From NCBI GenBank assembly GCA_905478465.1, contig CAJQIN010000012.1, forward strand, positions 98,890-158,942: a stretch of DNA of 60,053 nt. The letters run 5' to 3'. This DNA is from Minisyncoccota bacterium (GTDB taxonomy: Bacteria > Patescibacteriota > Minisyncoccia > Phycocordibacterales > CAJQIN01). Within the stretch, counting starts at the first letter, position 1. Each line of letters begins with the position of its first letter. The notes below the pieces were generated by a model. It saw only the letters and a program-made list of their open reading frames with translations, had not been told where the DNA came from and made no database searches. Shown in pieces: positions 32,679 through 45,365 of this stretch. Position numbers and translations under genes: made by a program.

Positions 32679-33905
32679 ATGAAATCTCTGTCAAAAAAAA
32701 TGTTCGCACTTGTGATATTTATTGGATTAGTATTACTAATAACACTAATCCAACAACTTCAACACATAGAATTATATAAAATTATTGGTTACACATTCAT
32801 AGCAATATGTTGTGTAGTAATAATTCTAAATATATTCGACAAATTAGCGAAGAAGGGAATTTTATTCATATACCCTATTCAAGGTAGTATGATAGCTATT
32901 GTGGCTGGTGGAACATATGTAAAACTAATTTACAGCATCTCTAAACACGTTTTTGATGAAAAATCAGGAGAAATGGTAGACGGTGATCGTACAAAAAGTT
33001 TACTCGAAATCATTACAGGAGCCCAGTTTATCGGAATACCCCCTTCTCGCAAACCTCTACATTTTGATCTTGCAGGAGAGGAGTACGGAAAAGAAGACGG
33101 CAAAGAAGGACAATCACTTTTATCTTTTAACAAAAAAGGTATAACCACTCTTTTCTTTCGACATCCATATGCCGCAGTAGTAAAAGACGCTGAAACAGGG
33201 GGTAATATTCCTGTTAACATGCGTTTTCAAGTAGTGTTAGTTAGAAAACGTCCTCTTGATACTTTTTTTGGCAATGGTACTCCAGGAAAGGGTTTAGATC
33301 TGGCCATAGGCCTAGTCATTAGTACAGCTCGTGAAATACTTCGAGAAATGAACATCGACTCAGTATTAGGTTTTACTTCTGATGGTTCCATAAAAAAAGA
33401 AGGTTCCATTAATACTGATCGAAAAACCATGATTTTAGATTGTATTTATGCAATCAAAGACCAGTTACTAACTGAAACAGGTTATTTACTTGAACTTGTT
33501 ACTATTGAAAGCGTCGAACCATCTGTTACACAAAAAGAACTAGAAACTTTAAGGAAAAAACCTATTGCTCAGATGGAGGCTGTTGTTCTACTTATTGAAG
33601 CAGAAGCTAGTAAGAAGGCAACCATCTTAGCGTCAGAAGCTGAAGCTACTGCAATTGAACAAATTTCAGTTGCCAGATCTATTGAAATTGCAAATATCTC
33701 AGTAGCTGAAGCTACTGCAATTGAAAACGTATCAACTGCTCAAGCTAAGGAATTGGAAAGAAAAGCTAAGGTTATGTCAGCATCACCTGAAGCAGCACAC
33801 TTGCAAGAGTTAATGTCTCTTGAAAATACTAACCTTAGTGTTCTTGGCAGCGACAGCAAAGTCCAACTTCTTGTTAACACACCAAAAGACGGAGGTGCAA
33901 ATTGA
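32679..33905 (+). CDS. SPFH/band-7-like membrane protein
   Basis: Two N-terminal TMs; ETGGNIPVNMRFQV; G..L..V.IESV.P; EA-rich coiled coil (AEATAIE repeat). Confidence 0.6.
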   Translation: MKSLSKKMFALVIFIGLVLLITLIQQLQHIELYKIIGYTFIAICCVVIILNIFDKLAKKGILFIYPIQGSMIAIVAGGTYVKLIYSISKHVFDEKSGEMVDGDRTKSLLEIITGAQFIGIPPSRKPLHFDLAGEEYGKEDGKEGQSLLSFNKKGITTLFFRHPYAAVVKDAETGGNIPVNMRFQVVLVRKRPLDTFFGNGTPGKGLDLAIGLVISTAREILREMNIDSVLGFTSDGSIKKEGSINTDRKTMILDCIYAIKDQLLTETGYLLELVTIESVEPSVTQKELETLRKKPIAQMEAVVLLIEAEASKKATILASEAEATAIEQISVARSIEIANISVAEATAIENVSTAQAKELERKAKVMSASPEAAHLQELMSLENTNLSVLGSDSKVQLLVNTPKDGGAN

Positions 33906-34348
33906 CACCATTTATTATGGTATTGTTGGTTAGTTTTTTTGTAGGATTAGTAATACTGTTATCTGCCTGGAAAAATAATTTAGCCAGAAAAACCGGAATT
34001 AGTTTAATTGTTATCGCCATCTGCCTCGGCGCACTAACCTTTAGTCCAATTGATTTTGGAAGTACCCAAAAAACACCTTCTGTCAAAAGAAGTGCCTGGG
34101 TATATCAAAAGAGTTACGATGCACACCACGATGATTTTACATACGTGAAAGCTCCACGAGGAGAGGCCTTTATCGAATATCGTCCCCAAGGGTCGGTATG
34201 GATAAAGAATCCAAACACCAAAGAAGTATTTGCGTATACTCCAGGCGAACCCTTAACACACGTAGGTGAAATACGTGGGAAAATTGGATTCAAGTCGGCC
34301 TCTCTAAAAACAGTAGAGATACACCTCTACACAAAGAGAGCCCGTTAA
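33902..34348 (+). CDS. Two-TM hypothetical protein, translationally coupled to the SPFH-like gene
   Basis: TTG start overlaps the upstream TGA; two hydrophobic helices then a soluble beta-rich domain; terminator follows. Confidence 0.55.
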   Translation: MTPFIMVLLVSFFVGLVILLSAWKNNLARKTGISLIVIAICLGALTFSPIDFGSTQKTPSVKRSAWVYQKSYDAHHDDFTYVKAPRGEAFIEYRPQGSVWIKNPNTKEVFAYTPGEPLTHVGEIRGKIGFKSASLKTVEIHLYTKRAR

Positions 34349-34365
34349 AAAATTTGGTTACAACA

Positions 34366-34400
34366 AAAAAGCGAAGAGTCATTCAGACTCTTCGCTTTTT
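34366..34400. terminator. Bidirectional terminator
   Basis: 15-bp arms aaaaagcgaagagtc / gactcttcgcttttt. Confidence 0.8.
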
Positions 34401-34425: not shown

Positions 34426-34695
34426 TTACCTAAAGATAAAGAGTCCGCCCGTATCAATTCCAAAAGTATTCAATGCAACACGTATGATACCGTATACAGA
34501 GACCATGATGAGCATACCCACAAGTCCCCACAGTATATTTTTTCGGCCATCGCTTCTACCTGTATCAGAATCTGAGTTCATCATGAACTGAACCATGCCC
34601 CACAAAAATACTACCACAGCTACACCAAATATTAGTTCGATGGTGGGATTTAGTATGACTCTATTTACTCGCTCTAATAGTTCAATTGGTTGCAT
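34426..34695 (-). CDS. VirB2/TrbC-like pilin (array copy 7)
   Basis: FLWG..QF.......GRKNILWGLVGM two-TM pattern. Confidence 0.75.
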   Translation of the reverse strand: MQPIELLERVNRVILNPTIELIFGVAVVVFLWGMVQFMMNSDSDTGRSDGRKNILWGLVGMLIMVSVYGIIRVALNTFGIDTGGLFIFR

Positions 34696-34708
34696 TCCGT
34701 AACTAAAA

Positions 34709-35050
34709 TTACAATACGCTAGGAATATTTATAGTAGCATTATCATCAATTCCAAGGTTACTCTGCAAGAACCCTACAAGACCCCATACTGATGCCATAA
34801 TGAAGAGTGCTACAACACCCCAAATCATTATGTTTTTTCCCTCAGCTTGTGCATCAGAATTACCAGCAGCAAGAATAAACTTCGCAAGTCCCCAGAAGAA
34901 AAATAGAAGTGCTAGAGCAAATACAATAGGAGTTGCCCTAGAAACAAGAGAAGCTACATTACCCAAAAACGTATCTAAACTATTTAAATCCTGAGCAAAT
35001 GCCAAAACAGGAAGTGTTAACAAAGACCCACTTATAATTACTTTTTTCAT
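34709..35050 (-). CDS. VirB2/TrbC-like pilin with signal peptide (copy 6)
   Basis: AFA|QD signal site; FFWGLAKFI...GKNIMIWGVVALF...SVWG. Confidence 0.8.
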   Translation of the reverse strand: MKKVIISGSLLTLPVLAFAQDLNSLDTFLGNVASLVSRATPIVFALALLFFFWGLAKFILAAGNSDAQAEGKNIMIWGVVALFIMASVWGLVGFLQSNLGIDDNATINIPSVL

Positions 35051-35146
35051 GTTACAAATATCTAATTAATAATTTTTTAAAACCTATAATAAGGTACTTT
35101 TATTATAGTACAAAAAACACCATCGAGGAACCTTACTGTGTATATC

Positions 35147-35863
35147 TTAATACGTCATTATTGCAGGTCCACTACCAGGAAGAGAATCTTCAGTATCCAT
35201 CATAGGAGTTGTGCTGTTTGCATCATTTGCATCATTTGCATCATTCATTTGTTGCATATCAGACTCAGCATTCATAGCATCTTCATCGTAATTTATTTCA
35301 ACTTCTGGTTCTGATTCTACAGGTGGCTGATATGCAGCCGAAGTATCACCTTCATATTCTTGACCATAAAATTGACCATCAGCAGAATACCCCTCATCAT
35401 TGACGTTTACCATGCTTCCATCATCTCCCTCTATGACATTACCGTAATCACTCCAGGCGTCATATGTGTCATAAGTATCAATATCCGCAGAACTACTGGT
35501 CCTATTAGTTGATCCTGTTTGTCTGCCAAAGCCCGGTATTGAAATATTACTGTTATTAGTAATACCTAAGTTCTCTTGTAGAAACCTTACCAATCCCCAG
35601 ACAGAAGCACTGACGAACAATGCCGTAACACCCCAAATCATAATATTTTTTCCCTGTTCTTTTGAAGTACTATCCCCTGCTACAAGAACAAATCTAGCAA
35701 GTCCCCAGAAGAAAAATAGAAGTGCGAGTGCAAAAGCAACAGGTGCCGCTATACCAACAATATCTCCTACTGAAACAACAAGTGATCGAATTCTACTTAA
35801 ATCTTGTGCAGATACAAAAACTGGAACGATCAAAAGAAAACTACTTATAAATATTTTTTTCAT
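35147..35863 (-). CDS. VirB2/TrbC-like pilin with long acidic C-terminal extension (copy 5)
   Basis: VSA|QD signal site; FFWGLARFV...GKNIMIWG; D/E/Y-rich tail with NDANDAN repeat. Confidence 0.75.
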   Translation of the reverse strand: MKKIFISSFLLIVPVFVSAQDLSRIRSLVVSVGDIVGIAAPVAFALALLFFFWGLARFVLVAGDSTSKEQGKNIMIWGVTALFVSASVWGLVRFLQENLGITNNSNISIPGFGRQTGSTNRTSSSADIDTYDTYDAWSDYGNVIEGDDGSMVNVNDEGYSADGQFYGQEYEGDTSAAYQPPVESEPEVEINYDEDAMNAESDMQQMNDANDANDANSTTPMMDTEDSLPGSGPAIMTY

Positions 35864-35905
35864 TTTTAATAAAAACTACTGAATAATTCACATTACTTTA
35901 TTTAA

Positions 35906-36202
35906 TCATAAAATTAAAGTGACATCTACCAAAGCTACCACACTAGTATTTGTCTCAATCCCTAAGAGTGTTTCCTGTACAAATCTCACTAATCCCCAAA
36001 CAGAAAGCAGAACAAAAAGTGCTACGACACCCCAAAGCATCAACTGTCTACCCTCTTGATTACCTTTAGCATCTCCCGCATTAAATATAAACTTAGCTAA
36101 TCCCCAGAAGAAAAAAAGAAGTGCACACCCAGCAGCAACAGTCACCAGCACATCCAGAATACCCTGAGTTCCCAATATTAATCCTTGTATATTTTGATTC
36201 AT
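35906..36202 (-). CDS. VirB2/TrbC-like pilin (copy 4)
   Basis: FFWGLAKFI...GRQLMLWGVVALF..SVWGLV. Confidence 0.8.
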   Translation of the reverse strand: MNQNIQGLILGTQGILDVLVTVAAGCALLFFFWGLAKFIFNAGDAKGNQEGRQLMLWGVVALFVLLSVWGLVRFVQETLLGIETNTSVVALVDVTLIL

Positions 36203-36208
36203 AATATG

Positions 36209-36496
36209 TTATTGAGGTAATGAGGGAGGAAAATTAAATGATCCTCCAAAAATATCACCATGAAATAATTGTAAAATACCTAAAAAAGATAACATTATAA
36301 ACAGAATGATAATACCCCAAAACATAAGCTGCTTACCTGTTTTTACAGACTCTTCATTGCCGCCATTCCAAATAAACTTCGCGATTCCCCAAAAAAATAA
36401 TACTAGTGCTAATGTTACCAAAAGAGGTATCAGTAGATCTATAATGCCATTAAAAATGGTAACGACATCGCTATATTGTTGTGGAGTATTAGGCAT
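36209..36496 (-). CDS. VirB2/TrbC-like pilin (copy 3)
   Basis: FFWGIAKFI...GKQLMFWGII. Confidence 0.8.
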   Translation of the reverse strand: MPNTPQQYSDVVTIFNGIIDLLIPLLVTLALVLFFWGIAKFIWNGGNEESVKTGKQLMFWGIIILFIMLSFLGILQLFHGDIFGGSFNFPPSLPQ

Positions 36497-36541
36497 ATTT
36501 TTATTTACTAATTTTTATACTAAAGATTATCGATTAACGGT

Positions 36542-36940
36542 CTAATTGCCACAATCCAAAGAAGATGGAGGATTATTTCCATACAACAGACACACCGTTT
36601 CTTTTATAGTACTTGCAATAACCCAAGACCCTAAAAGAATCACAGTTCCGATAACTGAATACATAAAAGCATTTTTTGCTTTAGAGAGCTTTGTATCATT
36701 TCCTTGCGCTGTTACAAACAAAAAACCTGCCCATATTATCATTAGTACCACAATAACTGATCCAAAAGGAAGTACCACTTTATCTATAACAACTTCAACA
36801 AATTTGGGAATACTATTTATATTATTACCAAGTGGATTAGGGAATTCTGTTACAAGAGTACTCCCGGATACAGCAAGTACAGAAAGAGGAGAGCAGAAGG
36901 CGACTATACTAAAAAAAAGTTTTGTAAAATTATTCAACAT
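36542..36940 (-). CDS. VirB2/TrbC-like pilin, second subtype (copy 2)
   Basis: Signal peptide; NPLG; AGFLFVTAQG....LSKAK.AF...IG..I.LGSW. Confidence 0.8.
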   Translation of the reverse strand: MLNNFTKLFFSIVAFCSPLSVLAVSGSTLVTEFPNPLGNNINSIPKFVEVVIDKVVLPFGSVIVVLMIIWAGFLFVTAQGNDTKLSKAKNAFMYSVIGTVILLGSWVIASTIKETVCLLYGNNPPSSLDCGN

Positions 36941-36943
36941 ATA

Positions 36944-37327
36944 TTATTCAGTTAAAAATACTTCATACTGATTTTCATCTAGCAAAGTACTAGTAATAGT
37001 ATACACGATAAGCCAGGCAGATATAATAAGCACAAATCCTATAAATATCTTAGTGAAAATATCTTTTGCTTTTTTAAGATTACCCTCACCTTCTATACCA
37101 GCAGTTAAGTATAGATATCCTGCATATGAAAAACCAATAGCAGCAATTGGAATCGACAGCACAACTATAAAATCCAAAATATTTTTTCCAAGCTGCACAA
37201 GATCTTGATATCCACACATGTCACCTGTGCTGTTACCACAGGTAACTAAAGGTTCTGCATACAAAAAAACTGGTAAAAAAGAACTTGAACTAATTAAAAT
37301 TTGTATTATTTTTTTTAATTGATACAT
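36944..37327 (-). CDS. VirB2/TrbC-like pilin, second subtype with N-terminal Cys pair (copy 1)
   Basis: LVTCG....C..DL; YAGYLYLTA.......KAK.IF....IGF..I.SAWLIV. Confidence 0.8.
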   Translation of the reverse strand: MYQLKKIIQILISSSSFLPVFLYAEPLVTCGNSTGDMCGYQDLVQLGKNILDFIVVLSIPIAAIGFSYAGYLYLTAGIEGEGNLKKAKDIFTKIFIGFVLIISAWLIVYTITSTLLDENQYEVFLTE

Positions 37328-37336
37328 AAAAATTTT

Positions 37337-38641
37337 TTAAAAACTTTTCCCTTCAAGCATTGTTTGCAACAGAGTGCTCGCATCTCGTACAGAAGTGCTT
37401 ATACTCGATCGTCCTGATGTAACTGATTCTATCATATTCCTAAAAAGTGTTGCTGTTCTATTTTTATCTGGGTCATACCAACCACGAGACCATAATGCTG
37501 AATTGTAGAACACAACAGACGAAGGATTTGTTGGTTTGTTAGAAAGCATACCTCTTCTAACAGGAGGTAATCCTGTCATATTCTCAAGTTCAGTTAATGA
37601 ACCTATACCCGAAAGCATATTTGCAGCAGTAAATGCCGCTGCTATGTTATTAGATGTTTTAGGAATTGATAATGCAGTAAGTTTTCCATATGTCAGAATT
37701 TCATTTGATCCACGAGCTTGGGGAAAAGAAGAGACATCAAAATTCAAATTTGGATTTTTTAAATTAATGGTTGATAACTCTGAAGCAAAACCAAAATATA
37801 TTGCAGAATCTCCAGAAACAAAAAAATCTTGAGCAGAAGGAAGCGACCTGTTCCAAGAATAATATGAATTTGAAGGATTCGAAAATTGTGTATAGTAATT
37901 TAATACAGCTTCCGATGGAACAACAGTCTCGTTGTGCTTATTCACCAAATCGCTTGATACCACTTCTCCATTTTTTACAGTAACAGAACCGCCGGCCTGC
38001 ATAATAAGCGCACTCAGTATTTCTTTAGCATTTGTAACATTCAAATATTCACCGAGAGCAGAAGATGTTTGTGAAATATTAAGCGAAGTATCTTTTACCA
38101 CAAACGTAGAGGCTAGGTTAAAAAACTCATCCCAATATTTTGGTGCTTCAGATATTCCCGCATTATTAAACATTGTTCTATTCCAATACATTACAAGAGG
38201 ATCCACTGAAAATGGCAAACCTACAACACCCTCAGTAGAAAGAAAAAGTTCTCCTTCTTCAATAAATGATTCCTTGAAAGCTCTTTCAGAATAACTCTCA
38301 TACGGAATAGCAAATAACTTATCTCGATGTTTTAAAACTGAATCTTGTGAAATAAATACAAGATCTGGACCTGCTCCACGCGCTAATGCTTCTATGAAAG
38401 ACTGGTCAAAACTAGCTTCGTTAATTTCTACATATGTCACATTTAAAGTATCGTCTCCATAGATACCAGAAGCTTTCTCGAGAACAGAGTACTCTGTCGG
38501 CGTCAAGGTTCCCCATATAGTAATATTTGAAACTACCCCCGAAGAAGAACCCTTTGAAAGTGAGAAGAAAATAACACCGACTAGAATAAAAACAGCAAAA
38601 ACTCCAGTAAATATCAACTGAAAAGGTGTCATATTTTTCAT
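37337..38641 (-). CDS. Membrane-anchored extracellular solute-binding protein (sugar-binding family-like)
   Basis: N-terminal TM; ITIWG, GPDLV, GLPFSVDPLVMYWNR..F, FVSG..A.YFG. Confidence 0.8.
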   Translation of the reverse strand: MKNMTPFQLIFTGVFAVFILVGVIFFSLSKGSSSGVVSNITIWGTLTPTEYSVLEKASGIYGDDTLNVTYVEINEASFDQSFIEALARGAGPDLVFISQDSVLKHRDKLFAIPYESYSERAFKESFIEEGELFLSTEGVVGLPFSVDPLVMYWNRTMFNNAGISEAPKYWDEFFNLASTFVVKDTSLNISQTSSALGEYLNVTNAKEILSALIMQAGGSVTVKNGEVVSSDLVNKHNETVVPSEAVLNYYTQFSNPSNSYYSWNRSLPSAQDFFVSGDSAIYFGFASELSTINLKNPNLNFDVSSFPQARGSNEILTYGKLTALSIPKTSNNIAAAFTAANMLSGIGSLTELENMTGLPPVRRGMLSNKPTNPSSVVFYNSALWSRGWYDPDKNRTATLFRNMIESVTSGRSSISTSVRDASTLLQTMLEGKSF

Positions 38642-39168
38642 ATTTGTTTTTCAAAAATTAAACCATAATGATGTTCTCCCGCATCAAACTCTGATATCTT
38701 CTGGCAACCGTGTGCCGAAAATAGTTCTTGTGCTTTTTCAGAATTTATAACATCTGATATTTGTGGACCCATTCCACCAAAGGATTCTTGCCAATCGACA
38801 ATAAAAATACGTCCCTTAGGTCGCAATATTCGCAAAGTCTCTTTTATTAGACCTTCAATATCTTCAACTTGAAACATAATATTTGCCAAAATAACTGCAT
38901 CAACTGACTCATCCTGAAGACCAGTCCCCCGCAACTTCTCAACATCTCCCCATAAAATTTCAATATTTCTAAGACTTGCTTCATCCGCACGCTGTTTAAG
39001 TCGTGAAAGTAAATCCTTCTGAACATCAACTGCATAGACCTTTCCTCCTCCACCAACAATACGTGCCGCCTCTAATGAGTACTCTCCTGTTCCTGACCCA
39101 AGATCAACAACAGTAGTACCAAGTATCAAACCAAATCTTTCAACATTATTTTGTGGATTAGAAAACAT
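38638..39168 (-). CDS. Class I SAM-dependent methyltransferase (UbiE-like)
   Basis: VVDLGSGTG, GKVYAVD, ILRPKGRIFIVDW; its stop overlaps the start of the binding-protein gene. Confidence 0.88.
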   Translation of the reverse strand: MFSNPQNNVERFGLILGTTVVDLGSGTGEYSLEAARIVGGGGKVYAVDVQKDLLSRLKQRADEASLRNIEILWGDVEKLRGTGLQDESVDAVILANIMFQVEDIEGLIKETLRILRPKGRIFIVDWQESFGGMGPQISDVINSEKAQELFSAHGCQKISEFDAGEHHYGLIFEKQI

Positions 39169-39267
39169 ATTTATAGTATACCAGAGCTTTGAAATGAATT
39201 TATCATAATGTGTGGATATAAAAATACATCTTTTTAATAACGATATATTTTTATATCTTTTTTAGAA

Positions 39268-41727
39268 TTATAAACACACAACAGATGCAAGAGAATCTCC
39301 ATCACGAAGCTTCATGATACGCACACCTTGTGTTTGTCGTCCAAGACTTGGCACTTCTTTTGTTTCAAGTCGAATAACCTGACTCTTTTTTGACATAGCA
39401 ACTATTTCTTCTTGATCAGTAAGTACTTGTGCTGCAATAAGATCACCTGTTTTTGCAGTTACCTTAGCAGTCTTAATCCCACTTCCTCCACGATTTTGAA
39501 CTTTGTAATCAGTAAATAGAGTAGTTTTTCCATATCCATGTTCTGAAACAACAAGCAGAGCAACTGTTTTTTCTGAATCCTTTGGAATCACACCAGTACC
39601 AATCACCATATCTCCTTTTGCAAGTTTCATTCCTCTAACACCAGCCGCATTTCTGCCCATTTCCCGAATTCCTTTTTCACTAAAACGAATAGCTTGTCCT
39701 TTCTTGGTAACAATAACGGCAGTATCATCCTTTTCTACAAAAGAAGCAGAAACTAACGTGTCATCATTTGCAAGTTTAATAGCAATAATTCCATTACGTC
39801 GCACATCATGGAAACTCTCTCCTGTCACCTTCTTTGTTGTTCCATTTTTAGTCACCATTAAAATAGAGACATCTTTTGTTTTCACCTCTTTTGACATTGG
39901 TAAAACTGAGGTTACTTTTTCATCCCCTTCAAGTGAGATAAGGTTCATAATAGATTTTCCACGCGTAGCTCGTCGTCCCTCTGGCACATCATACATTTTT
40001 GTTTGATACACCTTTCCTTTATCAGTAAAGAAAAGAAGATCACTATGTGTGTTTGACTTAAGGAAAGTTGTTACAAAATCTTCTTCTTTTGTATTCAAAT
40101 CAACAACGCCAACTCCTCCACGTTTCTGTTTTTTAAACTCTTCAGGACTTGTACGCTTGATATACCCTCCGGAAGTTAGAACAAGAGCATTTTCTTCACT
40201 AGGAATAAGATCTTCTACTGAAATAGACTTCACGCCAGAAGATACAACTTTTGTTCTTCGAGGATCTGCATGCTTTTCCACAAGTTCCGTCATTTCTTTT
40301 TTGATTAGATCACGCACCTTCTTTTCACTACCAAGAAGATCTTTTAGTTCTTTGATAAGAGCCTGTAAAACCTTTAACTCATCTTCTATTTTCTTTCTTT
40401 CAAGTCCAGCAAGTTTCTGCAGCTTCATTTCAAGGATAGCTGTCGCCTGTCTATCTGAGAACTTGAACTCTTTCATCAAACTTTTATGTGCCGTTGGCGC
40501 ATCAGATGATGCACGAATAAGTTTTATGATTTTATCAATATGATCCAGGGCTTTTTTCAAACCAAGTAAGATATGTTCTCGGTCTTCTGCTTTTGCCAAA
40601 TCATAAGCAGCACGCCTGCGGACTACTTCTGTTCTAAATTCCACAAAAGACTCTAAAATACCCTTAAGATTAACTGTTTGTGGTACACCTTTTACCAAAG
40701 CCACAACATTAAAGTGGAAAGATTCCTCTAGAGAAGTATGTTTATACAAAGCATTAAGAATTTTTTGAGGATGTGCATTTCCTTTCAACTCTACGACCAC
40801 ACGGATATCTTTGGCAGACTCATCTCGAATATCTCGAATTCCTTCAATTCTTTTATCGCGAACAAGGTCAGCAATCTTGATAATAAGATCCGCCTTATTT
40901 ACACGAAACGGAATAGAACTAATAACAATAGAAAAAGCACCTTTCTTGTCCTCTACAATCTCAGCAATACCACGCGTCACTACACCACCACGTCCAGTAG
41001 CATATGCCTGATGAATGTCTTTTTTATTAAAAATAATACCTCCTGTCGGGAAATCTGGGCCCTTAACAAATTCAAGCAAATCTTCTGTTGTTGCTTCAGG
41101 ATTATCAATCAAATGTATCGTCGCACCTACCACCTCACCTAAATTATGTGGAGGAATATTAGTTGCCATACCAACTGCAATACCAAGAGTTCCATTAACC
41201 AAAAGATTTGGAAAACCAGCAGGAAGAACTTTTGGTTCTTTACGCGTACCATCATAGTTAGGAACAAAATCAACTGTTCCTTTTTCAATATCTTTTAACA
41301 AATCACTTGAGATTTTTGACATCTTAGCCTCTGTATAACGCATAGCCGCGGCTCCATCACCATCAACGTTTCCAAAGTTACCTTGTCCTGCAATAAGAGG
41401 AGCTCTTGTCTTAAAATCTTGTTCCATATTCACCAGAGAGTCGTATACCGCAACATCACCATGCGGATGATAATTACCCAACACTTCTCCAACCACAGAT
41501 GCAGATTTTCGAAACTTTGCACTTGCTGTTAATCCCATAGCATTCATTGCATATAGAATACGTCTATGCACAGGTTTGAGCCCATCACGAACATCAGGAA
41601 GAGCACGTGCAGTAATAACCGACATCGCATAATCGATATATGAAGACTTCATTTCATCCGTAATATTTTGAGGAATGATTGAAAGTCTTGGTTGTGGTAC
41701 TTCTGGTTGTTTCTTTTTTGGTGCCAT
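39268..41727 (-). CDS. gyrA: DNA gyrase subunit A
   Basis: [29 protein letters not shown], GyrA-box QKRGGVG. Confidence 0.97.
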
Positions 41728-44822: not shown

Positions 44823-45365
44823 ATGAAAAAATTTCTCTTAGAAATACTCCAATTTGCCCTTATTGCTGTATTTATCGTTGTACCCTTTCGTATATTTATT
44901 GCCCAACCTTTTATTGTAAGCGGTCAATCTATGTACCCCACCTTCCATGACGGAGATTATTTAGTAATTGACCAGCTCACCTACCGTTTTGATACACCAG
45001 AGCGCGGTTCTGTGGTTATTTTCAAATATCCATACGATACAAGTAAATATTTTATTAAGCGTATTATTGGTCTTCCCGGAGAAACTATACGTATACAAAA
45101 TGGTGCTATTACTATAGAAAATAACTCTAACCCCGAAGGATTTATACTAGACAGCTCTTATATCACCAATACAAAAGAAGACAATTCTGTCACAACTCTT
45201 GGACAAAATGAATACTTTGTCCTGGGAGATAATCGTTCAAATAGCTCTGATTCTCGTATCTGGGGAGCTCTAAATGAAGAATACATTGTTGGACGACCTC
45301 TGATGCGACTCTTGCCTATACAAGACTTTGATGCATTTCCTGGAGATTATTCAGATATAAATTAA
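44823..45365 (+). CDS. lepB: Signal peptidase I
   Basis: SGQSMYPT, FIKRIIGLPGE, GDNRSNSSDSR. Confidence 0.95.
   Translation: MKKFLLEILQFALIAVFIVVPFRIFIAQPFIVSGQSMYPTFHDGDYLVIDQLTYRFDTPERGSVVIFKYPYDTSKYFIKRIIGLPGETIRIQNGAITIENNSNPEGFILDSSYITNTKEDNSVTTLGQNEYFVLGDNRSNSSDSRIWGALNEEYIVGRPLMRLLPIQDFDAFPGDYSDIN

Follow-up and report, generated by a model that had tools for sequence, protein, structure and literature searches.

A sugar-type binding protein without a transporter at the head of a VirB2-like pilin gene array in Patescibacteria

The stretch of DNA analyzed here (60,053 nucleotides; the window) spans positions 98,890 to 158,942 of contig CAJQIN010000012.1 from the Minisyncoccota bacterium assembly GCA_905478465.1, a genome of 927 kb in 50 contigs with ~36% G+C and an estimated completeness of 100%. 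Its subject is a run of nine open reading frames (ORFs) on the minus strand at 34426-39168, in which a class I S-adenosylmethionine (SAM)-dependent methyltransferase (MTase) and a membrane-anchored, MalE-type solute-binding protein (SBP) are followed by seven small proteins, designated p1 to p7, that resemble pilins of type IV secretion systems (T4SSs). As the original prediction for this DNA, made from the letters alone, had stated, VirB2-like pilin expansions are already known in the Candidate Phyla Radiation, and pilin arrays and T4SSs of Patescibacteria have been published (PMC12102498, PMC10633639, PMC12857230). For the SBP that heads the array, no published description of the link to pilins was found in the papers searched.

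Gene content of the locus

The nine ORFs have the window coordinates of the original prediction, and its description of nine codirectional genes with an overlap between MTase and SBP was confirmed. The stop codon of the MTase and the start codon of the SBP share 4 nt (ATGA), and the remaining gaps, from the SBP through p7, are 9, 3, 45, 6, 42, 96, and 13 nt in that order. The features of the locus, from upstream to downstream, are the following:

39268-41727, minus strand: gyrA, upstream neighbor on the same strand, 99 nt from the MTase (identified from its translation)
38638-39168, minus strand: class I SAM-dependent MTase, 176 amino acids (aa), cytoplasmic; Pfam Methyltransf_31/25/11
37337-38641, minus strand: membrane-anchored MalE-type carbohydrate-binding protein (SBP), 434 aa; SBP_bac_1
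36944-37327, minus strand: pilin p1, subtype B, 127 aa; PF18895, 36.6 bits; TrbC, E value of 4e-4
36542-36940, minus strand: pilin p2, subtype B, 132 aa; PF18895, 32.9 bits; TrbC, E value of 2.9e-5
36209-36496, minus strand: pilin p3, subtype A, 95 aa; PF18895, 23.8 bits
35906-36202, minus strand: pilin p4, subtype A, 98 aa; PF18895, 31 bits
35147-35863, minus strand: pilin p5, subtype A, 238 aa; PF18895, 37.8 bits
34709-35050, minus strand: pilin p6, subtype A, "penultimate" type, 113 aa; PF18895, 47.1 bits, the highest of the seven
34426-34695, minus strand: pilin p7, subtype A, terminal type, 89 aa; PF18895, 24.5 bits
34366-34400, no strand: bidirectional intrinsic terminator, a hairpin with a 15-bp stem between A and T runs (from a terminator scan and the sequence)

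All seven small proteins matched the T4SS pilin family PF18895 (gathering score, 26.6 bits), five of them above the gathering score (31 to 47 bits) and p3 and p7 slightly below it. Despite scores of 23.8 and 24.5 bits, p3 and p7 are clear paralogues of the other pilins, and p3 is homologous to p4 through p7 at 30 to 41% identity. The TrbC/VirB2 family PF04956 was matched by p1 and p2 only, in both cases below the threshold; these are the two profiles that the original prediction had named as a check on its pilin assignment. Its division into two pilins of subtype B and five of subtype A is likewise borne out by motifs shared within each group, [YW]AG[YF]L[YF][LV]TA...AK in p1 and p2 and F[FL]WG...G[KR]..[MIL].WG in p3 to p7.

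Alignments revealed a common layout of two hydrophobic helices joined by a short polar loop that contains GK or GR. Signal-peptide-like N termini are present on p1, p2, p5, and p6, and p3, p4, and p7 begin directly before helix 1. In p1 the signal peptide is followed by a cysteine pair (C30/C38), kept in at least 70% of orthologues, and then by the two-helix hairpin; p2 has a signal peptide and a cysteine pair at its C terminus. The hairpin of p5 lies between a signal peptide and a 134-aa acidic, low-complexity C-terminal tail that is rich in D, S, G, N, A, and E. The tail (window positions 35147-35560) contains the sequence DANDANDAN, and a 9-bp tandem repeat of 3.2 copies is located at 35217-35245. 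The protein p6 has a signal peptide (MKK...AFAQ) and the core FFWG...GK..MIWG of the penultimate type. It was modeled by AlphaFold2 (AF2) as a two-helix hairpin (residues 4 to 60 and 65 to 99) with a predicted local distance difference test score (pLDDT) of 79, and its profile had as its best PDB sequence match the pKM101 TraM pilin (8cw4), with a weak E value of 0.031. The identity of p4 to p5 and p6 is 50 to 60%, and that of p5 to p6 is 59%; these values suggest that p4, p5, and p6 arose by recent duplication of the penultimate type. Among 14 control genomes, Haloferax volcanii was the only one with a PF18895 match above the threshold.

Conservation of the binding protein, the pilin array, and the T4SS core

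The SBP matched the Pfam family SBP_bac_1 (E value of 2.9e-16). Its AF2 model (pLDDT, 92.4) combines an N-terminal transmembrane helix (residues 6 to 30) with a two-lobe binding-protein fold, the two being connected by a linker of poor conservation; the protein has no lipobox cysteine. Foldseek aligned the model with sugar-binding SBPs, including MalE and CpMnBP1 (4r9f/4r9g), at template-modeling scores of 0.65 to 0.72, and structure and profile searches also placed it among cyclodextrin and sucrose binders. The best PDB sequence match of its profile was MnBP1 (4r9f; E value of 2.6e-17). In a profile alignment with Escherichia coli MalE, the sugar-contacting residues D65 and E111 correspond to a conserved D100 and an invariant D147 of the SBP. 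The transmembrane helix is conserved like the ectodomain (identity of 0.54 versus 0.49), and its near-invariant residues F7, F15, I19, G22, and F26 are on one face of the helix, which suggests that the SBP has a specific partner in the membrane. Apparent fusions of the SBP with pilins or with additional domains were rejected; the long "SBPs" are artifacts of choosing the longest ORF or have low-complexity N-terminal linkers.

The original prediction had called the SBP an orphan, and this was upheld in the genome and in most of its order. The permease family BPD_transp_1 (PF00528) had no match in the genome, and the same search was positive in 14 of 14 control genomes. In a census of the GTDB order (151 genomes), the SBP was present as a full-length, single-copy gene in 145, and any permease was found in 22. 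In all but one of these 22 genomes the permease is a single gene, and it is distant from the SBP where the two were compared. Thus, the SBP is not part of a classical ABC importer; it belongs to the SBP_bac_1 family without an ABC import system.

The gene order in which the SBP is found is conserved well beyond this genome. Among 29 loci of the order (SBP identity of 43 to 58%), pilins are located directly behind the SBP in 25, and the remaining 4 end at contig edges, one of them with a pilin-like ORF that runs off the end. Of 21 order loci, none has more than 23 nt between the SBP and p1. In a sample of 301 genomes from the whole phylum, an SBP homologue was detected in 241, nearly always in one copy, and 40 loci were taken from ~35 families at 22 to 31% SBP identity; in 37 of these, 2 to 10 pilins on the same strand come after the SBP. 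Loss of synteny between SBP and pilins had been named beforehand among the findings that would refute the original prediction, and the synteny holds at both depths. Identical gene order in dozens of genomes is far beyond chance. The flanks are less constant: gyrA is upstream in most order-level loci and missing from most phylum-level loci, infB-rbfA recurs in 8 of 20 loci, and the genes downstream of the array in the window recur in 0 to 2 of 20. Median identities to the window across the order are 49% for the MTase, 46% for the SBP, 40 to 48% for the pilins, and 69% for gyrA, and the window is a typical member of the module rather than a special case.

The relationship between SBP and pilins is not symmetrical. 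PF18895 pilins were found in 297 of the 301 phylum genomes, and 57 of the 60 genomes without the SBP keep them at a similar copy number. The SBP is therefore an accessory of the pilins and not a requirement for them. Saccharibacteria, for their part, do not carry the SBP module. As the pilins are independent of the SBP and the SBP is rarely found away from pilins, an add-on receptor fits better than an obligatory assembly factor.

The positions of the pilin genes are conserved as well. For p1, the best match in every one of 20 complete arrays (2 to 8 pilins each, taken from different families of the order) was the first gene; for p2 it was the second gene in 15 arrays, and for p7 it was the final gene in 18. 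The p6 match was usually the penultimate gene. Judged from these best matches, the array has a fixed order: it opens with a Cys-capped pilin and a second pilin, varies in its middle, and closes with a short pilin that lacks a leader. Fixed positions with class-specific features suggest distinct structural roles, such as those of major and minor subunits, and not a purely variational role, and the ordered set argues for a heteromeric structure over interchangeable variants. At phylum depth only p1 retained a positional signal (12 of 30); the other pilins are too diverged for BLAST.

The original prediction had noted no ABC permease or ATPase and no VirB4 or VirD4 near the array. This holds for the window, but the part on VirB4 and VirD4 does not hold for the organism: a search of the genome for T4SS ATPases showed that the assembly system is not missing. 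One T4SS core cluster lies on another contig, C2 (117.6-126.6 kb; L001:2647-11581), beside yidC-rnpA-dnaA-dnaN. It encodes a 730-aa TrbL/VirB6-like membrane protein (E value of 1.1e-4, subthreshold), PrgI/VirB3 (E value of 2.2e-9), a VirB4 ATPase (P-loop_TraG; E value of 4e-25), and an eighth PF18895 pilin of 211 aa with a Cys-rich C-terminal domain. The genome thus contains the VirB4, PrgI/VirB3, and VirB6 set of the MPF-FATA type, and its VirB4 cluster and seven-pilin array are on different contigs. Five more ORFs in the C2 cluster (173, 204, 208, 235, and 410 aa) are without a Pfam match.

VirB4 is single copy in 143 of the 151 order genomes (68 to 87% identity) and is located hundreds of kilobases from the SBP array where both share one large contig. 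The SBP-pilin module is tied to the T4SS by gene neighborhood in two loci. In L034, from the same class (G227:C6, 6387-12635), MTase, SBP, two pilins, PrgI, a conserved ORF (orf241), and VirB4 follow one another on one strand with gaps of 7 to 22 nt; this was the only one of the 40 sampled loci that joins the module to the T4SS core. In L064, the array is followed on its own strand by a VirB6-like gene, at a distance of ~1.5 kb from the final pilin detected. In a genus without VirB4 (G037 and G149), the SBP of G037 is followed by a pilin-like ORF that is cut by the contig end.

A 631-aa soluble protein at C19:9802-11697 matched PF02534 (T4SS-DNA_transf, the VirD4 family) at 29.6 bits, barely above the threshold, and has no transmembrane segment; its gene lies between cell wall genes and a run of glycosyltransferase-like genes, away from the T4SS. 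A 733-aa open frame on contig C9, considered as a coupling protein, was rejected because it is FtsK. In two genomes of the order, at G059:C28 (L092:374-4168) and probably at G140:C9:30866-34612, VirB4 is contained in an open frame of 1,264 to 1,280 aa; the G059 ATPase is interrupted at its P-loop region by an intein that comprises Intein_splicing and a homing endonuclease (LAGLIDADG_3).

Possible roles of the binding protein

The best explanation of the locus, to which we assign a probability of about 0.5, is that it represents, in the form found in Paceibacteria, an ancient operon of the Patescibacteria in which a surface-exposed SBP heads an ordered set of VirB2-like pilins. On similarly even odds, the SBP can be regarded as a ligand receptor that is coupled to the T4SS pilin apparatus. 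Under this proposal, the pilins would be inserted into the membrane by Sec/YidC, and the VirB4/VirB6 machine would use them to assemble a conduit or pilus of heteromeric composition. Anchored by its conserved transmembrane helix, the SBP would serve as the ligand receptor of the apparatus; by binding a saccharide that belongs to the host cell surface or comes from it, it would couple host recognition to the function of the pilus or T4SS. The MTase would be a lineage-specific, probably translationally coupled cytoplasmic partner.

Several results weigh against this interpretation. Three of the 40 phylum loci have an SBP homologue without a detected pilin neighbor, and these are also without a permease. 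Because gyrA is syntenic within the order too, conserved gene order alone is no proof of joint function. The hhalign comparison of the SBP with MalE is reliable only at D65 and E111, and most other pocket residues were not confidently mapped. The likeness of the small proteins to VirB2 rests on Pfam and weak sequence matches; a Foldseek search with the p6 model, which is uninformative for a simple hairpin, returned nothing below an E value of 0.6 and matched no solved pilin. A promoter scan found 21 sites where 26 were expected from shuffles, so that the count was not above that of shuffled sequence. Finally, the literature examined includes no visualized T4SS pilus of Patescibacteria.

Arrays of 2 to 11 pilin genes have been reported in 383 assemblies (Quinonero-Coronel et al. 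2025, PMC12102498), and such arrays have been linked to a T4SS of the MPF-FATA type that is essential in Southlakia epibionticum (PMC12102498, PMC10633639). The definition used for these arrays, 2 to 11 tandem pilins, or pilins with one non-pilin gene between them, in a genome with VirB4 (PMC12102498), includes the array in the window. The published arrays and the one described here are alike in their tandem PF18895 pilins with low mutual identity and in an MPF-FATA-like VirB4/VirB6/PrgI core near dnaA. The array in the window differs in that it is far from virB4, is headed by an orphan sugar-type SBP and an MTase, and displays positional orthology instead of free variation. In S. epibionticum, the array (SEML1_0014-0019) is essential, comprises six pilins, and is inside the T4SS cluster (Wang et al. 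2023, PMC10633639); in contrast to the genome studied here, that of S. epibionticum has no such SBP, as neither PF01547 nor PF13416 was matched by any of its proteins. No paper describing a link between SBP and pilins was found in the literature searched, and the key array papers covered by that search mention neither an SBP nor an MTase. In the only Patescibacteria that are genetically tractable, the T4SS and its pilin arrays are essential, and what they do has been called completely unknown (PMC11665869, PMC10633639). A soluble, readily expressed SBP of the sugar type, without a transporter and fixed before the array in most classes of the phylum, offers an experimental handle on this apparatus. 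The ligand and partners of the SBP would reveal what the apparatus recognizes on the host or takes from it.

Like VirB2, TrbC, TraA, and TraM (PF04956), the pilins are small, have two hydrophobic helices and a polar loop with a conserved basic residue, and in some cases carry signal peptides. Unlike them, they are encoded by a monoderm organism, consist of seven paralogues rather than one major pilin, and include three leaderless members. A TraF-type cyclase and a VirB5 were not seen here, and no search was aimed at either. The SBP resembles binding proteins of the MalE/CpMnBP1 type in sequence, in its two-lobe fold, and in the acidic residues at two sugar-contact positions of MalE, but it differs from them in the lack of a MalF/G-type permease, in its conserved transmembrane anchor, and in being almost always encoded with pilins.

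An unlikely, though far-reaching, alternative is that the SBP, the VirB2-like hairpins, and the T4SS form an uptake or exchange device, in which the SBP would pass a host sugar, saccharide, glycolipid, or other glycoconjugate into a pilin-lined, VirB4-powered conduit in place of ABC importers. The order is almost devoid of ABC permeases yet retains a sugar-type SBP, the set of hairpin proteins is fixed and heteromeric, no membrane-anchored coupling protein is encoded beside the T4SS, and an import role of the Patescibacteria T4SS has been the subject of speculation (PMC11665869). However, the import of small solutes by T4SS or VirB2 assemblies has no known precedent, and arrays and T4SSs are retained in lineages without the SBP. 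If it existed, such a device would substitute for the lost ABC importers and account for the essentiality of the T4SS among epibiotic Patescibacteria.

Some periplasmic binding proteins have chaperone-like activity, and the SBP fold might hold or deliver pilin subunits, or a lipid partner, rather than an external ligand. In favor of such an assembly factor are the position of the SBP gene, strictly next to p1 and probably translationally coupled to it, and the conserved face of the transmembrane helix. It seems an equally unlikely role, as the pilins persist both in nearly all of the SBP-less phylum genomes and in S. epibionticum, and as the SBP has conserved acidic residues at the sugar-binding positions of MalE.

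In Agrobacterium, the sugar-binding protein ChvE potentiates the induction of T4SS genes via VirA. By analogy, a loaded SBP could act as a sensory coreceptor that signals the proximity of a host and switches on the T4SS or pilus. Both cases would involve a sugar-binding protein that is functionally tied to a T4SS and signals host presence, and the conserved transmembrane face of the anchored SBP and its genomic coupling to T4SS parts are compatible with signaling. The analogy is imperfect, because ChvE belongs to a separate class of binding proteins, works with an ABC transporter as well, and has a gene that does not accompany virB2; the locus in the window contains no kinase, and none of the conserved genes of the locus encodes a kinase or regulator. 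We regard a sensory role as quite improbable.

There is an equally small chance that the SBP has no joint function with the pilins and is an independent lectin or adhesin, or serves another transporter, and simply shares a strongly expressed operon. Genes such as gyrA, galU, and infB-rbfA recur nearby, of which gyrA at least is clearly functionally unrelated, and three phylum loci have an SBP without detected pilins. Adjacency of the SBP and the pilins nevertheless persists at 22 to 31% identity even though both flanks change, and the short SBP-p1 gap is common to all order loci.

Least likely by a clear measure is that the seven pilins are interchangeable units for host range or immune-type variation, an analogy drawn in PMC12102498 from the tandem amplification of T4SS pilin genes in Bartonella and Anaplasma, because p1, p2, the penultimate pilin, and the last pilin are positional orthologues with class-specific features across 20 families, most positions here thus being ancient conserved orthologues and not the antigenic or host range variants that the VirB2 arrays of those bacteria are thought to provide. 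The recent paralogy of p4, p5, and p6 (50 to 60% identity), the varying number of middle genes (total of 2 to 8 pilins per array), and the variable tail of p5 do fit variation. The variable middle of the array may serve this purpose, and for these genes variation and a receptor-headed pilin apparatus are not exclusive.

The methyltransferase and the chromosomal setting

The MTase matched Methyltransf_31/25/11 above the threshold (E values of 7e-20 to 1e-16), and its closest PDB sequence was 3dh0, an uncharacterized SAM-dependent MTase (E value of 2.5e-18). These are generic class I matches; there was no match to an equivalog-level family. The original prediction had included the MTase in the module, but its link to the SBP proved to be restricted by lineage. 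In 25 of the 29 order loci the MTase immediately precedes the SBP, often overlapping it or ≤27 nt away, and it does so too in L032-L035 and L039; two loci of the same class without gyrA, including L034, still pair MTase with SBP. Beyond the window's class, adjacency of the MTase is limited to one further lineage. In most other classes, and in ~27 of the 40 phylum-level loci (L036-L071), the position is occupied by galU, on the same strand as the SBP, which indicates that the MTase is no universal part of the module. It is probably a lineage-specific partner and probably translationally coupled to the SBP. That it methylates the pilins is pure conjecture.

The galU-like genes encode the motif AVIPxAGxGTRFLP of UTP-glucose-1-phosphate uridylyltransferase. 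In three of these loci, a ~180-aa protein with a transmembrane anchor is encoded immediately before galU. No clear copy of galU was found in the genome that contains the window.

The upstream gyrA is not considered part of the functional module. Other neighbors in the window encode ClpB, a cysteine desulfurase-type aminotransferase, infB, rbfA, four tRNAs, an MBL-fold protein, an S1-domain protein, signal peptidase I, and a HisRS-like protein. As all of these are housekeeping genes, the locus is chromosomal, with no obvious mobile element. A recognizable Shine-Dalgarno sequence is upstream of none of the 10 minus-strand genes at 34426-41727, all of which start with ATG and have A/T-rich leaders.

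The strong hairpin at 34366-34400 separates the end of the pilin operon from two convergent plus-strand genes at 32679-34348; one encodes a protein of 408 aa that has a membrane segment at its N terminus, the other a protein of 148 aa, and neither has a Pfam match; these genes are not kept beside the array in relatives. The gene for signal peptidase I (Peptidase_S26) is located at 44823-45365, 5.6 kb upstream of the operon, and its product is a candidate for cleavage of the leaders of p1, p2, p5, and p6.

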